From positions 1-64,000 of IMG/VR virus record IMGVR_UViG_3300017527_001400: a stretch of DNA of 64,000 bases. One strand, 5' to 3'. Origin of the DNA: a virus. This document shows, piece after piece, positions 7,167-29,423 of this stretch; position 1 is the stretch's first letter, and each line of letters begins with the position of its first letter. The translations under genes were made by a program, and so were the position numbers. The notes under the pieces were generated by a model, which was given only the letters and a program-made list of their open reading frames with translations, did no database searches and was not told where the DNA came from.

Positions 7167-7837
7167 ACAAGGTCATAGAAAAAACAACACATAAAGACAG
7201 AAAACAGAGAAACTGGGACTTTTATCGTAATGCATATCTTCGCGGAGACATGACCTTCATGGAGATAAAACGCATAAATGACATATGGTATCCATTATTT
7301 CAGAATCAAGAATTCCATACCACCGAGCAGATCGTAAAAGGTTTTAACATGGTTGGTCCCGCACATCGTCATACTGTTCTCGAGCTTGGATGCTACAGAG
7401 GGGCTCTCGCTGAAAGTATTCTTCAGCAAGTCCCGGACATCGATGCTTGGTTTGGTTATGATATTTGTGATGCAGCACTGGACGAATGCCTTTCTCATCC
7501 AAAATTTGGACCCATCAGGATGGATGATTGGTTTCACAAGCTGGACAATATACCCTCTCATGATATTTTTGTGTCTACACATACTCTAGAACACATGTCA
7601 AACGACGAAGCCATTGCATCATTGGAAAAGGCTATAGAATCTCCACGCTGTAGATACGTAATGCTCGAAATGCCTATCCCAGAAGCAGGTAAGATATGGC
7701 GAGGAGGTGGATCATCGCACGTATTGTCTTTGGGTCGTAAACATTTCAGAAAATTCTTTGACCAGCGGGGCTGGACAAATATGCATGAATATACAAGACA
7801 TATTAATTGGGGGGTAATGTATGGACGTTCATTATAA
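7154..7837 (+). CDS. class I SAM-dependent methyltransferase
   Basis: VLELGCYRGALA, GYDI, HTLEHM. Confidence 0.8.
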   Translation: MDTIDKVIEKTTHKDRKQRNWDFYRNAYLRGDMTFMEIKRINDIWYPLFQNQEFHTTEQIVKGFNMVGPAHRHTVLELGCYRGALAESILQQVPDIDAWFGYDICDAALDECLSHPKFGPIRMDDWFHKLDNIPSHDIFVSTHTLEHMSNDEAIASLEKAIESPRCRYVMLEMPIPEAGKIWRGGGSSHVLSLGRKHFRKFFDQRGWTNMHEYTRHINWGVMYGRSL

Positions 7838-13474: not shown

Positions 13475-14845
13475 ATGAAATTGAATACCGCAACAAAACA
13501 TCGTATCCACACCCACGAAGGCGCTCCTGCCAAAGCAATCAACGCTGAGTTACAACTCGAAAGGTCTATCATGGCTAATATGCTGTGGGAAAACCAGTTC
13601 TATGAGTCCGGTCAGGCAATTGCCGACAGGATCAGCGACCTTTGCAAGCAGGTCTCTCCCGAATTCATCTCTTCCATGGCAGTAAAAGCCCGGCATAAAA
13701 TGTACCTCCGGCATGTTCCTTTGCTGTTGGTTAAAGAGCTTGCAAATCTTTGCAATGCCAACACCGGTAGCGTATGGAGGATGAAGGCTCAGCTCATTCG
13801 CAGAACCCTTGCTTCTGTTATCAATCGCCCCGATGAACTGTCGGAATTTCTGGCTATCTATTGGAAAGACGGCAAGGTACCTCTGTCCAATCAGATCAAA
13901 CGTGGTCTGTCTGATGCCTTCAACAAATTTGATGAATACCAAATTGCGAAATACAATCGCAAAAGCGACATCACGTTGAAGGACGTACTGACGCTATGCC
14001 ATGCGAAGCCTAAAGATCTTGCACAGTCAGGAATCTTTGAACGGCTTTTGAATGACAATCTGGCAACACCCAAGACCTGGGAAGTTGGTCTCTCCGGTGC
14101 AAAGGCTCATGGCGTATCCAAGAAGGATGTCTGGGAAGACCTGCTTCGTGAAAATAAAATGGGTGGCATGGCAGTGCTTCGAAACCTGCGGAACTTTGAC
14201 CGTGATGGTGTCGATCGAAATCTGGTTCGTGAAGCCATAGTGAAAATGAAACCCTATCGCATTTTGCCTTTCAGATTCATTGCAGCTGAAAAGTATGGGC
14301 CCAATTATTCTGATGTCATCGAAGCCAAGATGCTCGAATGTACCGAAAATATGACCAAGCTCACTGGTAGGACCATCTTGCTGGTTGATGTCTCTGGGTC
14401 TATGTTTTCACCTATATCCCAGCGATCTGATATTAATCGGATGAAAGCTGCTGAAGGCCTGGCTATCTTACTTCGGGAAATTTGCACAGAGATCCAGATT
14501 ATATCTTTCTCTTATCATCCTGTGAATGTTCCTAACAGGAGAGGTTTTGCCCTCGGAGAAGCGATCACGAGGTCTCAGGACAACGGTGGAACCAACTTTG
14601 GTGAAGCTGTTTCTCAGGCATATAATATCCCTCATGATCGGTTAATTGCCATCACAGACGAACAATCTCATGATCGTGTGCCTGATCCTAAACATGGCAT
14701 TCCTTCTTATGTGATTAACGTTGCTTCATATCAAAATGGCGTTGGTTACGGGCCTTGGACACATATCGATGGTTGGTCTGAAAATGTTGTTCGATATATC
14801 CAGTCGCTGGAGGGACTCGATGCACATAGTAAAAATGACATGTAG
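13475..14845 (+). CDS. rsr: Ro60/Rsr TROVE-domain RNA-binding protein
   Basis: THEGAPA start, LWENQFYESG, FDEYQIAKY, TWE, AVLRNLRN, LPFRF, VWA VDVSGSM, ITDEQ, IDGWSE. Confidence 0.92.
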   Translation: MKLNTATKHRIHTHEGAPAKAINAELQLERSIMANMLWENQFYESGQAIADRISDLCKQVSPEFISSMAVKARHKMYLRHVPLLLVKELANLCNANTGSVWRMKAQLIRRTLASVINRPDELSEFLAIYWKDGKVPLSNQIKRGLSDAFNKFDEYQIAKYNRKSDITLKDVLTLCHAKPKDLAQSGIFERLLNDNLATPKTWEVGLSGAKAHGVSKKDVWEDLLRENKMGGMAVLRNLRNFDRDGVDRNLVREAIVKMKPYRILPFRFIAAEKYGPNYSDVIEAKMLECTENMTKLTGRTILLVDVSGSMFSPISQRSDINRMKAAEGLAILLREICTEIQIISFSYHPVNVPNRRGFALGEAITRSQDNGGTNFGEAVSQAYNIPHDRLIAITDEQSHDRVPDPKHGIPSYVINVASYQNGVGYGPWTHIDGWSENVVRYIQSLEGLDAHSKNDM

Positions 14846-15577: not shown

Positions 15578-15853
15578 ATGACATCAAAACAAGTTGATAG
15601 ATTAATTGAAGAAATCGGCAATGTTGCATATAACTTAAAATATTTAGGAAATGGAAATGCTTCAACTCAATTTGGAGCAATTGAAGGCCATTCAATGCAA
15701 GTAAAGGAAGGGCTTGAAACCTTAGCCTCTGCAGTTTCAAGTGCTGGAGGAGAAATAAACATAAGTGATTTACCAACTGCAATCGAGGGTGCTGGTAGAG
15801 ATATTAAAGATGGGCTGCTATCCATAGCGGCTGCGATAAATGATGCGGGGTAA
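15578..15853 (+). CDS. hypothetical protein
   Basis: ORF with LKYLGNGNASTQFGAIE. Confidence 0.55.
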   Translation: MTSKQVDRLIEEIGNVAYNLKYLGNGNASTQFGAIEGHSMQVKEGLETLASAVSSAGGEINISDLPTAIEGAGRDIKDGLLSIAAAINDAG

Positions 15854-15922
15854 GGTAGTCTGGTCTAACCTAGGTGTCTCATAAGCACCTCTTCGCGGGT
15901 TCAAATCCCGCCCCCGCTTCCA
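15844..15922 (+). tRNA. tRNA with CAT anticodon (Met or Ile2)
   Basis: GGTGT-CTCATAA-GCACC anticodon arm, GGTTCAAATCC T-arm, CCA end. Confidence 0.85.
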
Positions 15923-15954
15923 AAATATTAAAAGGAGGCTATATGATGATTCTT

Positions 15955-16230
15955 GTATTCGAATAGTATTCCATATCATGCCTTCAGAAGCGATCAGATC
16001 CGATTTCATTAATAATAGCATGGGATAGCATGCCTTGCCGCATTATCCAGTTTGCTTCGACCCTATCTTATATAATTCAAATTCTATTTGGATTCGGTTC
16101 GATAAAACTCTACGCAATGCACTATCATCAAATGCAAAATCTCATAGGATCCAATAAAATCCTACGTTTATTATTTCAATACTGTACAAACAAGGATTGG
16201 CCTTAACAGTACAATAGTATTGAATGCTTA
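15955..16230 (+). repeat. NNN-AT pentamer array 1 (putative guide RNAs)
   Basis: cgaAT agtAT tccAT atcAT gccTT cagAA gcgAT cagAT ccgAT ttcAT...; continues up to the RBS of the RAMP gene. Confidence 0.8.
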
Positions 16231-16244
16231 TAAGGAGAGAGAAA

Positions 16245-16997
16245 ATGAAAAAGAAAGCACCAGGACCGTACACATTCAGAATTGTTGGACAGGCAGATTC
16301 CGCGTGGCGCGGGGCAGTACCGGACGATTGTGCAGATCTCAAAGTTGCACCCGAGAAAAATGTAAAGGAGCTCCTTTACATGATCGTCAAGGCAGAAGTT
16401 GAAAGACTCACACAAAAGGGTGATACAAAGGGGGCAGCTGAGGCTGTCAAAAAGTATCAAGATCATTCAAAACATCAATATGCGAATCCATTGAATGTTT
16501 TCAAAAAAGACAAGCAAAACGGTGATATCCCATGTATCGGTGCTCATTGTCTTTATGGTGGGTTTCGTGATGCTGCCGTTGAGCTTTTCCCGCAGTATTT
16601 CTATAAAACTGCTGCAGACCGTGGCAAAAAGCCATCGAACAAGCATCTTAGAAAATATGTTCATGTCCGTCCTTATCATGTTTTCTTGCATCGGCCTTCA
16701 ATGAATGGTAATGGTAAGATTATAAAAGAAGTGGATGGTGTTCATGATCAACATCCTACGCCAAAAGTCGGGGCCTTTTGTCGTTATGAATTTATTGATT
16801 CTCCATTTCAATTTGAATATCTTCTAAATGTTTCCATCGAAGGCCCCTTCAAAAAGTTCCTGGAAAATCAACACGAAGTTAAAATGGCAATCGTTCAATC
16901 AGCAAATGCCGGTCAAGGCGGCGGAAGGGCAGCAGGTTATGGAATGTGGAGGATACTCAAGTGCAAGGTTGAAGATGGCCTGTCGTATACGCCGTAA
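16245..16997 (+). CDS. stand-alone Cas7/RAMP-superfamily protein
   Basis: GDIPCIGAHCLYGGFRDAA resembles the RAMP P-x-I-x(4)-L-x-G-x-x-R helix; C-terminal Gly loop GQGGGRAAGYG; no other cas genes in window. Confidence 0.75.
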   Translation: MKKKAPGPYTFRIVGQADSAWRGAVPDDCADLKVAPEKNVKELLYMIVKAEVERLTQKGDTKGAAEAVKKYQDHSKHQYANPLNVFKKDKQNGDIPCIGAHCLYGGFRDAAVELFPQYFYKTAADRGKKPSNKHLRKYVHVRPYHVFLHRPSMNGNGKIIKEVDGVHDQHPTPKVGAFCRYEFIDSPFQFEYLLNVSIEGPFKKFLENQHEVKMAIVQSANAGQGGGRAAGYGMWRILKCKVEDGLSYTP

Positions 16998-17034
16998 AAT
17001 CCCTAAAATCGCAACAAATACGGAAGGAGTAATC

Positions 17035-17229
17035 ATGTCAAAGATCACTGACACGCTAACAGATGCTGCAGATAAGGTTCTCAATGGTGAAATTCCATTG
17101 AAAACCGGTGAAGTCGTTCATAAACTGGGCAATTCGCTTGGAGTCGCAAAAAACTCCGAGTGTCGTGCACAGGAAATTGGACTGGAAGACGACACAAAAG
17201 CCGCACTGGATGCCATCAAAACAGAGTAA
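17035..17229 (+). CDS. small protein downstream of the RAMP gene
   Basis: AAGGAG RBS, 64 aa, followed by hairpin GGGTAAGCGGCAATTGCCGTTTACCC. Confidence 0.6.
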   Translation: MSKITDTLTDAADKVLNGEIPLKTGEVVHKLGNSLGVAKNSECRAQEIGLEDDTKAALDAIKTE

Positions 17230-17271
17230 ACGGAAACCTTGGGTAAGCGGCAATTGCCGTTTACCCATGTC

Positions 17272-18550
17272 TTCCTATCCTGTGTTGTTCGATAGTATGC
17301 ATTTAGATACCATAGACTCGTATTTTATTCATAAGAAATGTCATACGGTTCCGTTCGATCCCTTATCTCAGGATCCGATAATATGCTATGCATTATAGAA
17401 TTTGCCTTGCTTAGGTAGCATATGTTTCTATTTGATCAATGATTGATTCAATACCATCGAATTGAGTCCTCTGTGATACAATGTAATAGAATAAATGTAT
17501 TTAATATCATTGCATGGAGTTCGATAAGCTTCCATCAAATCATATGCATTATTTTATTAACTGGAATTGAAAAAGATCCCTTCGCATGGAATGTATAGTC
17601 CGCTATAGTACCGTTCCATAATACACGATGCTATGCTTTTGAATAAATAATTTGATCTAGTAATATTTGATTCCGTGAGATGCTATCTTATATTATGAAT
17701 TAATCTCATCTCATCAGATATTATGCGTTTCGATTCGATTTGATCCGATCTATAATCTCATGCCATATTATATTAATCGATAACTCAAGGTCCGATCCCA
17801 TTCGATTCGATGAAATAAAATATTATGCAAAATTAAAATACAATAATTTAGAGTGGGACCGTATTTGAACCTATTCTATTTTATATTATCGCTTTAATAC
17901 TCAATACCATCAGACCGTATTATATGCCTTCGCATCTGATCGTATGACATAATCAATTGCATCGCATGCGATCGCGCATAATTGAACCAAATATTATGGA
18001 ATCAATAATTCAATAACATATCATCAGGCTATATGCCATTGAATATGTTCCGATTTTATCCACCAATAGTATGCCATCGGATAGATTGTTTTGTAATGTC
18101 ATAATCTGCCATTCGCAATGTCTTATTTTACAATCGAACATTATGGCTTGGCTTAGTCTTCCATAAAATATATTATTTAATTGGAATTTGATTTTATGCC
18201 TTCAAGAAGTATCCGATCCAATTCATAATTGCATCAGATTTTATACAAATAAATATTGTCTCGTTTAATTCATAAATGTCATCCGTTAATATGGCTTGGA
18301 ATTTGTTGCTATAGCTACTTTACGATTCGATAAACAATTCCATATCATCCAAATACATTGAATTATATGCAATTAATAATCAATTAAAATTGTTCCCAGT
18401 ATTGTTCAATTGGATGCGATCAGTTGAAATAAATCATTCCATTTTATATGACTCATTGATATCGCTTTCTATGACATGGAATATTTCTCTTCATAAAATA
18501 AAATTAATTGGCACATCACGCTTTCTTATGGGATATAATGTTTTACATTA
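17272..18550 (+). repeat. NNN-AT pentamer array 2 (about 20-25 blocks of ~9-11 pentamers)
   Basis: No credible ORF over 1.28 kb; e.g. 17705 ctcAT ctcAT cagAT attAT gcgTT tcgAT tcgAT ttgAT ccgAT; blocks separated by AAT-type phase shifts. Confidence 0.85.
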
Positions 18551-18589
18551 AACTTTACACACACAATAAAATAAAGGAGGAACAAACTC

Positions 18590-18934
18590 GTGGAACTCAT
18601 TAGATTTCACAACGCAATAATCGGCAATAGAAAAAACAACCCAGTTATCACCGAATGTATCATCAAGGACGGCAACAAAATTGCTTCCGGAATTGCTCTC
18701 TGCAGCAAAATGGATAAGTTCAACGAAGTCACCGGTATCAATTTGGCCAGGCGCAGAGCTCTTCGGAAAATCAAAGGTCGCAAGGTCCGTCCAATGGCAA
18801 GACATAAGGCCATCTCTATTTTCATGGAAACCGGATATCCCATACCTGCTGATGGAGCGAAGGCCCTGAACCTGAACCGACAGTGCCTCAGCAAAGTATG
18901 TAAGATCGAAAAAGAAGCTCTCTTTAAGGTCTAA
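18590..18934 (+). CDS. hypothetical phage protein
   Basis: AAGGAGG RBS; GIALCSKMDKFNEVTGINLARRRA. Confidence 0.65.
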   Translation: MELIRFHNAIIGNRKNNPVITECIIKDGNKIASGIALCSKMDKFNEVTGINLARRRALRKIKGRKVRPMARHKAISIFMETGYPIPADGAKALNLNRQCLSKVCKIEKEALFKV

Positions 18935-19243
18935 AATAAAAGCGGGCGTAGCTCAAAGAGGTAATGTCAAAAGGGTGCTTAGCAGAAAGACGTCGACGCT
19001 TGACAGAAGATTAGGACAAGCCAATTTTGGACATTGAGTAGTGGACCAACCAAGACACTGCTGGGTAATACCATCGAGTGCGAGATGGAAATAGTATGCA
19101 TAGAGGTCGAGCTTCGTCAGTCTGGATTAACCAGTGATCCGTTCCACAAGTAACTTGGTGCGCTGACAGTTCCATAATAATAGCTGCCTCTCCTATGTCC
19201 AATAACGTCCGACCACAAAGGTTATCATACTGTGTTAAGCTTT

Positions 19244-19319
19244 GTGGCCGGAGGCATACGGGTACGCCGATAGACTGTGGCTCTATTGCAAGTGGGTTCG
19301 AGCCCCACCGGTCACCCCA
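19244..19319 (+). tRNA. tRNA-His(GTG)
   Basis: ATAGA-CTGTGGC-TCTAT arm, C73, CCA; base at -1 is T, not G. Confidence 0.85.
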
Positions 19320-19323
19320 CAAA

Positions 19324-19402
19324 AGCCCCTTGGTGAAGTGGCTTAACACGACGGGCCTTGGACCCGTAATTTTCCCAGGTTCGAATCCTGGAGGGGCTTC
19401 CA
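19324..19402 (+). tRNA. tRNA-Gln(TTG)
   Basis: ACGGG-CCTTGGA-CCCGT arm (C33), GGTTCGAATCC, CCA. Confidence 0.85.
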
Positions 19403-19420
19403 TCCAAAAAAGGAGTAGGT

Positions 19421-19720
19421 ATGTCAGCTGATTGGTGTGAAACTTGTGGAAACTTTATGCTCTTCCCAAATTCTCATAAATGTCCTCCAATATTCATGGT
19501 TAATGAACCTGAATATGATGAAGAATGGTATAAGATAAGAGCGCGTAGCTTTGAGTCAGCTGCTGAAAAATGGGCTGACAAAACAGATGCCGAAGGTGAT
19601 TATTCAATTATCAGTGGCAACGAAACAGAAGTTATTGTTCGCAATGAAGCCGGCGAAATAAAAAAGTTTAAAGTTTTTGGAGAATCTGTACCCGAATATA
19701 CTGCAACAGAGATCGAATAA
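19421..19720 (+). CDS. hypothetical Cys/His protein
   Basis: AGGAG RBS; CETC...HKC. Confidence 0.6.
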   Translation: MSADWCETCGNFMLFPNSHKCPPIFMVNEPEYDEEWYKIRARSFESAAEKWADKTDAEGDYSIISGNETEVIVRNEAGEIKKFKVFGESVPEYTATEIE

Positions 19721-19721
19721 A

Positions 19722-19817
19722 GCGGGCGTAGCTCAAAGAGGGGTAAGCGCACCCTTACGATAGAGCGCCGTGCCACCAGCACGGAGGTCGGAGGTTTGAC
19801 TCCTCCCGTCCGCTCCA
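19722..19817 (+). tRNA. atypical tRNA-Gly(ACC) with enlarged D-loop
   Basis: GCGGGCG/CGTCCGC-T-CCA Gly acceptor; CCGTG-CCACCAG-CACGG arm; extra GGGT..ACCC hairpin in D-loop. Confidence 0.7.
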
Positions 19818-20018
19818 AGGAAAACCATGCATAAAACAACAAATACAACTACAAAATATATATTCTCTGAGAATGATGTCATTAATATGATTGATGCTTT
19901 CTTGTTGAAACATGAAGAAGGTGGTGAAATTAACTTCATGAATGCGGTTGTTCGGGCAAGAAGTGCCAATTCATCCAATGCATCTGTGCCTGTAGGCCAG
20001 TTGGAACTAACAATCTAC

Positions 20019-20095
20019 GGGTCCCCATGTTCCAAGGCTGGCGAGTCGGGCTCCAAACCCGACTGAGCGAGGTTCAATTCCTCGGGGATTCGCCA
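20019..20095 (+). tRNA. tRNA-Trp(CCA)
   Basis: TCGGG-CTCCAAA-CCCGA arm, G73, CCA. Confidence 0.85.
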
Positions 20096-27044: not shown

Positions 27045-27749
27045 ATGACAGGAAAAGATGTTGCTGTAAAGGAGAAGTACGCAATCATGAACCCGGAACA
27101 AAACGTCATGGAAATCATTCAGTTGAACTTGGGTGGAGAGGCTCTGTCAATTTCAGATCTCGACACAATCAAGACGCCAGCTGGTGGTTCTACGATGTGG
27201 ACGATTCCAACGGCTGGAGATGACGAGATCGTAAAGGAATTCTCTGGTGTAATTATTCACTCCCAGATTCAACGAACATATTGGGAAGATGAATATTCCG
27301 GCAAGGGTCAACCGCCCGATTGTTTTTCAAACGATGCCGTAGTTGGTACTGGCATCCCCGGCGGTGATTGCTGTGACTGTCCGAATGATGAATTCGGATC
27401 TGCACGAAAAGGCAAAGGCAAGGCTTGCTCAACGAAACGTATCATGTTCATCCTCCGAGAAGATAGTCTGTTGCCGACGGTTCTTCGGGTTCCAGTTGGA
27501 TCCTTGAAAAACAGTCGAAACTATCTCAGCTCACTTTCCAACAAAGTCCAAGCGATGCACGGTGTTTTCACCGAGTTTGGTCTGGAGAAGGCTACGAATA
27601 CCGGCGGAATCGAATATGCCAAAATCACGTTCAAAAGGACGGGGGTTCTGACACCTGAAGAGGTCAAGGCAGTTGTGGCCTACAAGGAAAAGATCCTGCC
27701 TTATATTGACCAGGCCGCATCAGTTTTCATACCGGAAGAGGCTAAATAA
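27045..27749 (+). CDS. putative ssDNA-binding replication protein with Cys motif
   Basis: PPDCFSND...CCDCPNDEFGSARKGKGKAC; directly upstream of primase. Confidence 0.55.
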   Translation: MTGKDVAVKEKYAIMNPEQNVMEIIQLNLGGEALSISDLDTIKTPAGGSTMWTIPTAGDDEIVKEFSGVIIHSQIQRTYWEDEYSGKGQPPDCFSNDAVVGTGIPGGDCCDCPNDEFGSARKGKGKACSTKRIMFILREDSLLPTVLRVPVGSLKNSRNYLSSLSNKVQAMHGVFTEFGLEKATNTGGIEYAKITFKRTGVLTPEEVKAVVAYKEKILPYIDQAASVFIPEEAK

Positions 27750-27758
27750 GGAGCTACC

Positions 27759-29423
27759 ATGACAACATTTCTTCAGGATCTATACAAAGGTAAACCAAAC
27801 GATCATCACATCTTAATATGGACTCTGAAAGGAAAACGCTCCAAATGGTTTAAGACGGTAAAGGAAGCGGAGGACTTCATAAGTGCCAACCCTGATGATA
27901 CATACTTCGGGGTTGGCACAAGTATTAAGGACTTCGGACCTTCGAAACGATGCACAAAAAGTAAAATTTCAGGAATTCCCGGGCTATATGTTGACATCGA
28001 TATAAAGCCCGATGGCGAAGACAGCAAAGCCCACAAGGGTAAGAAGTATCCCAAAAGTATGAAGGAAGCTCTGTCACTGGTCGAAGGACAGGGCATGGAT
28101 CCAAGCATTATCATAAATAGCGGTTATGGATTACACTGCTATTGGCTATTCGATGATTTCTGGTCATTTGATAATAACGCTGAACGCCAACAAGCTGCAG
28201 AGCTCGAACAACGTATGAACGCCACGATCTTGAACCGTGCGAAACGCAACGGCATGGCGATAGACAGCGTGTTCGACTTGTCTCGGGTTTTGCGGCCTGC
28301 GGGAAGCAATAATTGCAAACGCAAAAAGCCTGCTGCAGTGACTGTACAATCAGACAGTGGTAAAAGATATGATCCTCTTGACCTCGAACGTGACCTCGAC
28401 AAACTCCCTGACAAAAAAATAAAAGATACACATAGAACTTTCTCAGACATAAAGATAGATCCGGGATTAAAGGTCAATCCAAAGGTAGAGATCAAGGCGG
28501 ACGATTTATTCGAGCTATCAGCACAGCAAGATCAATTCAATGCTACATGGGCAGGTAAACGAGGCTTCAAAAGCCCATCAGAATACGATTTAAGTCTGGC
28601 GAATATGGCTGTAGAAGCCGGATGGAGTGATCAAAAGGTCGTCAACCTGATTATCCATCATCGACGCAAAACCGGAGAGCTTGATCCGGTCAAAATGACT
28701 AGAAAAGATTATTTTGATCGAACAATAAGACTTGCAAAAGAAGCTGCTAAAAAAAACGAGTTTGAACGGCTTACAGACAAAATCGTGGCAAGCGGGACGA
28801 TTTTTGATCAAAAAACTATTCAAGATGTTACAAATCACATAAATAAGCTGCTAAAACCTCTCAAGTTTGTAGAAATCAGAAAGCATATCAACGAACCAAA
28901 AGTAGATTATTTTATAGACGTCATTGCACCTGATGGAACGGCTTGGGAGATAAAACTTGAAGGTAGCTTACAAACTAGACTGCTGTTTATAAAAAACCTT
29001 CAAGACAGAACAAATGTACGCCCCAGAATCGGCGTCAAGCAATGGGATGCCTTGTCTCAGGCATTCAGCATCGTTGTTGTAGAGGTTGAGCGATCTCTCC
29101 GGATGGAGCAGATACAAGATGCAACAGTTATCTATGTTGAAAAGTTCATTGCAAATAAAAACGTCAAGCTTAAAGAAGTCTGGTCTTCGGGTCAGCCATT
29201 CAAGCATAAAGGTGAATGGGTCTTAAATGTCAAAAAGTTCCACACATGGTTCACCCTTGCAAACAATGAAGGCGATTACGATCAGAAAAGCCTCAGAGCC
29301 GATCTCAAGGAGGCCGGCTTCAAAGGCATTAACATCTGGCTGGTAGAACATCAAGCAGATGGAAGCTATCTTCGAAAGAAGAAGGCTTATATGAAGATCC
29401 CCAAAAGCTGGCCACTGCCTTAA
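27759..29423 (+). CDS. RepB-type (AEP) DNA primase
   Basis: YVDID, INSGYGLHCYWLF, DLSRVLRPAGSNNCK, SPSEYDLSLA. Confidence 0.85.
   Translation: MTTFLQDLYKGKPNDHHILIWTLKGKRSKWFKTVKEAEDFISANPDDTYFGVGTSIKDFGPSKRCTKSKISGIPGLYVDIDIKPDGEDSKAHKGKKYPKSMKEALSLVEGQGMDPSIIINSGYGLHCYWLFDDFWSFDNNAERQQAAELEQRMNATILNRAKRNGMAIDSVFDLSRVLRPAGSNNCKRKKPAAVTVQSDSGKRYDPLDLERDLDKLPDKKIKDTHRTFSDIKIDPGLKVNPKVEIKADDLFELSAQQDQFNATWAGKRGFKSPSEYDLSLANMAVEAGWSDQKVVNLIIHHRRKTGELDPVKMTRKDYFDRTIRLAKEAAKKNEFERLTDKIVASGTIFDQKTIQDVTNHINKLLKPLKFVEIRKHINEPKVDYFIDVIAPDGTAWEIKLEGSLQTRLLFIKNLQDRTNVRPRIGVKQWDALSQAFSIVVVEVERSLRMEQIQDATVIYVEKFIANKNVKLKEVWSSGQPFKHKGEWVLNVKKFHTWFTLANNEGDYDQKSLRADLKEAGFKGINIWLVEHQADGSYLRKKKAYMKIPKSWPLP

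Follow-up and report, generated by a model that had tools for sequence, protein, structure and literature searches.

A phage-borne VIPR variant with an A/U scaffold carries a guide that likely addresses the primase gene of rival phages

Introduction

In this work, we describe a phage-borne locus in which two non-coding arrays of five-base repeats, about 27 blocks together, flank the gene of a RAMP protein and a gene of 64 codons. It lies in a window of 64,000 nucleotides (positions 1 to 64,000 of the IMG/VR virus record IMGVR_UViG_3300017527_001400), the whole stretch of DNA that was analysed. We conclude that the locus is a variant of VIPR, with an A/U scaffold, a divergent RAMP family and a long tail-less array, and that it is not categorically new. 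One block of the downstream array matches, at all of its 22 read bases, the codons of the catalytic motif in primase-helicase genes of other phages. We consider it likely that this block is a vrRNA unit of the phage-carried VIPR and that it silences a replication gene of rival phages, co-infecting or resident, while sparing the carrier's own.

VIPR, a CRISPR-like RNA-guided DNA silencer, was first described in 2026 (bioRxiv 10.64898/2026.04.26.720920). Its loci are phage-borne and combine one RAMP (Vipr) with an accessory gene (vap) and with vrRNAs, the published vrRNA being made of 9-16 five-base repeats G1-G2-Y3-N4-N5 (bioRxiv 10.64898/2026.04.26.720920). Each repeat is bound by one Vipr protomer, in which GGY is buried, while N4N5 pair with dsDNA in such a way that every third target base is skipped; the skipped base is mostly the codon wobble, and the natural targets are competing phages and satellites (10.64898/2026.04.26.720920). 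The published scaffold variants (NNNGG, YNNNG, NNNNG) all contain G, the RAMPs share little sequence similarity according to the preprint, and tail-less staggered arrays are described in other VIPR types (bioRxiv 10.64898/2026.04.26.720920). The studied example is the type II system of Escherichia phage SUSP1; in type II, the conserved structured 3' tail that comes behind each repeat tract is a pseudoknot (10.64898/2026.04.26.720920). Further sources are a structural companion (bioRxiv 10.64898/2026.04.26.720927) and bioRxiv 10.64898/2026.10.15.759431.

The RAMP gene and its partner

The coordinates of the features discussed in this article are collected in Table 1.

Table 1. Coordinates of the locus, of the carrier's primase and of the sites compared with them (positions are those of the window unless another record is given)
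Feature	Position	Strand	Basis or remark
Upstream array, about 4 blocks	15957..16200	+	same weight matrix as downstream array; flanked by tRNA-Met on one side and the RAMP gene's ribosome-binding site on the other
Vipr-like RAMP gene, 250 aa (P0002)	16246..16997	+	Cas7 fold, AF2 model and fold searches
Candidate vap (VIPR accessory protein), conserved 64-aa gene	17035..17229	+	adjoins the RAMP gene across lineages
Hairpin downstream of the 64-aa gene	17234-17266		
Downstream array, about 23 guide-like blocks	17267..18550	+	FFT, pentamer weight matrix, Viterbi segmentation
Guide block, eleven n-R-U-N-N units	18008..18062	+	layout by segmentation; 55 bases
Own primase gene, 554 aa, AEP/prim-pol type	27759..29423	+	phrog_2478 'DNA polymerase/primase', E 1.3e-17
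Own primase motif GYGLHCYWLFD, look-alike self site	28122..28154	+	17/22 read bases
SUSP1 GGY-NN arrays	NC_028808 27621-27674, 27744-27985, 29152-29250	minus	flank two hypothetical genes, 195 aa and 146 aa
FixG/CcoG-like 22/22 sites	L143:3726-3757; L151:2291-2322; L153 near 7568-7596, minus		Gaetbulibacter, Yeosuana, Flaviramulus

The RAMP assignment comes from the predicted fold. An AF2 model built on an alignment of the relatives of the protein (pLDDT 91) displays a thumb hairpin, an insert of two helices and a glycine loop with the sequence GQGGGRAAGYG; residues 38-57 and 61-76 are helical, and residues 145-168 form a hairpin. When this model was compared with known structures, Foldseek matched it to Csm3 with an E of 2e-6, and VIA-align placed Csm3 (Z 12.6) and Cmr4 (Z 12.3) first, followed by gRAMP and the type IV and type VII Cas7 proteins, so that the best 42 rows were all CRISPR RAMP or Cas7-family entries. 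At the sequence level, no Pfam or PHROG match was found for the 250-aa protein, and a profile search of the PDB sequences with the family returned weak matches only, the top seven being glycine loops of Csm4 or Csm3. A library of 1.8 billion cluster representatives holds 48 relatives, and the genome contig collection yielded none. Locus searches with the single proteins P0013 and P0021 found nothing, and a hand-made RAMP motif pattern retrieved three loci, all of them by chance.

To place the locus among its relatives, 16 related loci were fetched, which together with the window make up nine lineages with a protein identity of 41-49%. The 64-aa protein has no Pfam family, and its homologues (about 65 aa) adjoin the RAMP gene in all 8 of the 8 lineages that have downstream sequence. 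Arrays with a periodic purine-T pair lie directly beside the RAMP gene and on its strand in all 9 lineages (16 loci), and they are found almost nowhere else within the fetched loci. Their scaffold is the same throughout: the place of Y is a T in 81-97% of the repeats, the second position is A in 44-83% and G in 9-33%, and the first base is free. The arrays themselves do not align between lineages, though the genes are 70-75% identical in DNA; no variable bases common to the arrays of different lineages were found, nor was any copy of the anti-primase guide in the related arrays. Among the neighbouring ORFs that were scanned there are no cas genes, and in particular no Cas10, Cas5 or Cas6 was seen.

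A Ro60/TROVE RNA-binding protein gene (13475-14845; Pfam TROVE 4e-19, phrog_850) lies just upstream of the locus, and a cluster of tRNA genes (Met, His, Gln and Trp; 15844-15922 and 19244-20095) is found nearby, with an additional 93-nt tRNA-like match at 19722-19814 that appears in the sensitive Rfam search only.

The arrays

The guide block sits in a 1.3-kb non-coding, AT-rich tract, and a blastn search of positions 16000-20000 against phages gave no match. The five-base periodicity of the array is real: its FFT power is 9.3, and shuffled sequences reach 5.4 at most. Among 247 pentamers, 71% have A at position 1 and 86% have T at position 2, while positions 3-5 are near random with a roughly genome-like GC content; the same weight matrix gives 70% and 83% for the upstream array. 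Each block of the downstream array comprises 8-12 pentamers and closes with a unit of 7 or 8 nt that shifts the register; most blocks are 47, 52, 53, 57 or 58 nt long. These shifts are not random: in most cases the extra unit consists of R-U with five or six free bases behind it, and it recurs every 47-58 nt. In other lineages, 4-nt register-shift units are also common. No conserved 3' tail or pseudoknot was seen behind the block, and the blocks abut via the 7- or 8-nt unit. These regular units may mark the guide boundaries in a tail-less, 'staggered' array.

In two lineages, the arrays are adjacent to tRNA genes: the upstream array of the window starts about 35 nt past tRNA-Met (15922-15957), and the array of L011 stops 2 nt short of a tRNA-Lys (L011:5664-5667). 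The processing of the tRNAs might set the ends of the array RNA.

Several other accounts of the arrays were considered and set aside. A structured RNA was rejected, as the folding was no better than that of shuffles (z -0.75 and +0.47) and the Rfam search found no family. DNA helical phasing would suit the 52.5-bp blocks of the window, but not the L001 blocks of 54 nt and 44 nt. A binding site for a ring protein like TRAP (trp RNA-binding attenuation protein) resembles the blocks in having about 11 short motifs at a five-base spacing over about 53 nt; However, the TRAP ring protein is unrelated, its ligands are GAG/UAG triplets and it serves no guide function, and this candidate was dropped after the Cas7 fold and the targets were found. 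No CRISPR repeat-spacer array, long direct repeat or tandem repeat is present at the locus.

The code of the guide block

The initial annotation had divided positions 18010-18064 into eleven pentamers, had dropped the last two bases of each and had read the reverse complement of the resulting 33-mer as one contiguous coding sequence. The quoted pentamers are indeed those of the window and yield the 33-mer of the annotation, whose reverse complement does translate to GNGIQAYWMF in frame 2, so the arithmetic of this decoding is correct. We use a frame that spans 18008-18062, in which each pentamer on the strand of the gene reads n-R-U-N-N, with a pyrimidine at the place of Y3, a purine at that of G2 and any base at that of G1. 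The dinucleotides that remain to be read are TC AA AT CA TA GC TG AT CC TT CC, and their reverse complement is GG AA GG AT CA GC TA TG AT TT GA. If one target base is skipped after each of them, the block becomes GGx AAx GGx ATx CAx GCx TAx TGx ATx TTx GAx, which translates to G, N/K, G, I/M, H/Q, A, Y, W/C, I/M, F/L, D/E. The 22 read bases are thus codon positions 1 and 2 of G-N-G-I-H-A-Y-W-M/I-F/L-D with the wobble left free, and this sequence is the catalytic prim-pol motif of the primase-helicase genes of other phages. Under the skip rule, the catalytic His is back in the motif and the match runs on to the next Asp.

Three variable bases had been assigned to each pentamer, of which the first two would be those that are read. 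The third is a scaffold position, which coincidentally aligns with the skipped wobble. This means that the 33-mer is not a contiguous target, and that a blastn search with it fails for the wrong reason, since one variable base in each pentamer goes unread. The initial annotation was right that the variable bases spell a primase motif, and the motif in its peptide stands; the contiguous three-base code has to give way to two bases read and one skipped, and the Gln of the peptide arises only from translating the unread third base; at this place, the targets have His (CAY).

The literal code would use every one of the three variable bases and would address a contiguous 33-mer that encodes GNGIQAYWMF; it is in our view very improbable. 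Gln does occur naturally at this position of the motif in the homologues P0062, P0066, P0072 and P0074, and at the target sites described below the skipped bases agree with the 33-mer at 4.4 of 11 on average, where 2.75 are expected; this excess is probably due to codon usage and to the invariant G of TGG and ATG. Against it, the back-translated GNGIQAYWMF pattern has 0 matches in IMG/VR, and a near-exact copy of the 33-mer in primase genes was looked for by blastn against 50,697 phages, which returned 17-nt chance matches, none of them in a primase. The decoded 30-mer, with up to 3 mismatches, is absent from the own genome, in which the matches of the decoded block, contiguous or five-spaced, are the same as those of shuffles; two five-spaced patterns also gave 0 matches in IMG/VR. 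In the control with shuffled triplets under the contiguous decoding, 30% of the shuffled sets scored 38 or more against the proteome of the window, and an open frame is uninformative, as 99% of the shuffled blocks have one too. The match of the contiguous three-base decoding is not beyond chance, and that of the skip-rule decoding is far beyond it.

The targets in rival primases

The skip rule was turned into a scan pattern, GGNAANGGNATNCANGCNTANTGNNNNTT, with 18 fixed bases, which was run on IMG/VR and on a 596-Gb prokaryote collection. In IMG/VR, it has at least 120 matches, and among the 120 matches listed, 118 lie in frame on SGNGIHAYW; the only two listed that are not primase motifs are L056:5156 and L083:1570, which read AGKGIQAYCFL. 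In the prokaryote collection, 17 matches were found, about the chance number for its size, and 9 of these 17 are the SGNGIHAYW motif. All 22 read bases are matched in seven IMG/VR viral contigs (L048, L077, L084, L085, L106, L119 and L136) and in a contig of a Flavobacteriaceae MAG (L146), and at 82% or better the guide covers more than 100 IMG/VR contigs. The perfect sites in target genes are codons of SGNGIHAYWM(F/L)D or SGNGIHAYWIFD, with the skipped base on the wobble. At these eight sites, all the mismatches to the contiguous 33-mer fall on the third base, where 4-6 of 11 bases agree, against 22/22 for the other two, which is what the skip rule calls for and the literal code does not. The proposal that the guide is directed against the primase of a rival is borne out by these skip-rule matches in eight contigs.

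The target ORFs are primase-helicases of about 950 aa with a DUF927 and match phrog_8841 'DNA primase/helicase'; phrog_25314 matches both of the targets that were scanned, and phrog_2478 one of them (L085). Five target records were examined whole, two of which are complete genomes of 59-60 kb. These records come from distant relatives of this phage and contain no pentamer arrays, and seven of their genes are homologous to genes of this phage at 20-31% amino acid identity; the distant homologues in common include the terminase, an SNF2 helicase and the primase.

The controls bear on a further explanation, namely that the resemblance is due to chance. The array would then be no more than a periodic scaffold on which the RAMP sits, or a tract of protein-binding DNA, in which the variable bases drift and for which many decodings are possible. 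The variable bases do differ between lineages, the contiguous decoding is equalled by the 30% of shuffled sets that match the own proteome as well, a single 22/22 match in IMG/VR would not be very rare for 27 guides by a rough estimate from database size, and there is a 22/22 match in an unrelated host gene as well (see below). Here the chance level for IMG/VR is an estimate from the size of the database and from the scan of the prokaryote collection. The matches listed from IMG/VR are, however, all but two in one frame and on one catalytic motif, which had been named beforehand by the initial annotation, and the mismatches occur only at skipped bases. Moreover, the best match of any shuffled guide is 17/22 in 1.2 Mb of rival loci and 18/22 in the five whole rival records, and when random 11-unit guides drawn from the array were compared with 26 primase homologues, at least 9/11 codon units were matched by only 3 in 20,000 (P = 1.5e-4). 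We therefore regard chance as improbable, and a guide against rival primases remains our preferred reading of the block.

This target is shown for one guide of the 27, the other 26 blocks having no match above shuffles in the rival DNA that was searched. The block at 17899-17950, in which an integrase motif had been read, matches 17/18 read bases at L069:3415-3440; this site adjoins the primase motif and is out of codon register, and as about 0.5 such matches are expected, it is taken as chance.

A match in a host gene

Perfect matches are not unique to primases, since a FixG/CcoG-like gene (Pfam Fer4_18 and FixG_C) of three Flavobacteriaceae genomes, of Gaetbulibacter, Yeosuana and Flaviramulus, contains a 22/22 match to the guide too. 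In this gene the skipped base is codon position 2 and not the wobble, and the three matches are one homologous locus, for which the chance expectation is about 0.07. The match is probably a coincidence, and it may be a hint at a Flavobacteriaceae host.

One could suppose on this basis that the block is a real VIPR guide with another target, either this host gene or, by way of a weak regulation, the carrier's own primase, which falls just below the cut-off for target calls. The primase matches in rivals are far more numerous and are in codon register, which the FixG/CcoG-like match is not, and the published natural targets are competing mobile elements (10.64898/2026.04.26.720920). We hold a host or self target to be highly unlikely.

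The carrier's own primase

The phage encodes an AEP/prim-pol primase of its own, which matches phrog_25314 and phrog_2478, families also found in the scanned targets, and which Pfam DNA_primase_S and RepB_primase_C match only below their cut-offs. It carries SGYGLHCYWLFD at 28119-28154. Counted from the codons, this site has five differences from the guide at the read positions, so that it agrees at 77%, below the 80% that the preprint uses as its cut-off for target calls (bioRxiv 10.64898/2026.04.26.720920). That the own primase has the same motif in different DNA, as had been noticed at the outset, is correct (16/30 bases identical to the decoded 30-mer over the ten common codons), and so is the proposal that the guide spares self. 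For all guides, the best matches in the own genome equal those of shuffles. Natural variants of the motif occur among the homologues of the own primase, for instance SGNGIHAYWCF (P0073).

Relation to known systems

The likeness to VIPR extends from the genes to the code. Indeed, the locus is minimal and phage-borne, with one single-RRM RAMP that has a G-loop, a thumb and a helical bundle, a single small accessory gene, no further cas genes among the neighbouring ORFs scanned, and flanking non-coding arrays of five-base repeats on the strand of the gene. The guide has 11 repeats, within the published 9-16. Each repeat contributes two read bases, with a skip of one target base that coincides with the codon wobble. 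The guide addresses an essential gene of other phages, and it has no self target at 80% or more. With the same detector, the VIPR architecture was also found in the SUSP1 locus (L157, NC_028808, minus strand, 27621-29250; 27.6-29.3 kb).

The differences concern the scaffold, the proteins and the array. Instead of GGY, the scaffold here reads n-R-U, with A in 71%, U in 86% and a free first base, and it is not among the variants of the preprint. The RAMP has 250 aa, against 195 aa for the SUSP1 Vipr, and the partner has 64 aa and no known family. Unlike in SUSP1, about 27 guides abut with register shifts of 2-3 nt and without a conserved 3' tail or pseudoknot; this tail-less array seems to come closest to the 'staggered arrays' of fig. 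S18 of the preprint (10.64898/2026.04.26.720920). A primase catalytic motif as target also sets this system apart from published VIPR, the word 'primase' being absent from the first preprint (10.64898/2026.04.26.720920). In sequence, hhalign of the RAMP family profile A1 against the SUSP1 Vipr gave an E of 0.3 with only a D-x-Q-x-G segment aligned, and a tblastn search of 50,697 phages for SUSP1-Vipr-like similarity gave no match. As there is no detectable sequence similarity to the SUSP1 Vipr, the membership in VIPR rests on the fold, the architecture of the locus and the code. The inference of a guide in the initial annotation stands; the system to which it belongs is not an unknown one, but a VIPR variant.

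The best structural matches are the Cas7-family proteins Csm3 and Cmr4 of type III, with which the RAMP shares the RRM core, the C-terminal glycine loop and the thumb hairpin and, judging from the predicted fold, would share the assembly of a filament on a guide RNA. The position of the catalytic Asp of Csm3 is presumably not conserved in the RAMP. In contrast to type III CRISPR-Cas, there is no CRISPR array here, the period is five bases and not six, the guide has sequence-specific scaffold bases, and the pairing of guide and target is gapped.

A proposed mechanism and its meaning

By extension from the published system, the functioning of the locus would be as follows. The arrays would be transcribed together with the RAMP gene, as in SUSP1 by analogy. 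Each five-base repeat would then be bound by one Vipr-like protomer, which would bury the scaffold (any base, purine, U) and present the next two bases. The 11 presented dinucleotides would pair with double-stranded DNA, in a triplex or an R-loop, with every third target base skipped, and the bound complex would block the transcription of the target gene. The target data fit either strand of the array as the transcribed one; the strand of the gene fits on account of the purine-pyrimidine order of GGY and of the arrangement in SUSP1.

More tentatively, and with somewhat less than an even chance in our estimation, the n-R-U/NN RAMP family could be a further VIPR type, with a protein that reads two scaffold bases, of which only the pyrimidine is common to GGY. 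The tail-less array of about 27 guides would then be a standing panel against the catalytic-site codons of replication and other essential genes in many rival phages.

What the locus offers in practice is a rule for finding more such arrays, namely a purine-U pair every five bases beside a lone RAMP gene, together with the caution that a search with contiguous sequence wrongly rejects guides written in the skip code. For the biology of the phage, the guide points to a concrete natural target, the catalytic His motif of prim-pol primases, and the carrier's primase would be protected by its five differences at read positions. Synonymous changes would offer a rival phage no escape, since the guide covers codon positions 1 and 2. 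Finally, the skip code is here extended to an A/U-scaffold family without sequence similarity to the studied Vipr, which suggests that this code belongs to the protein class as a whole rather than to the GGY repeat.
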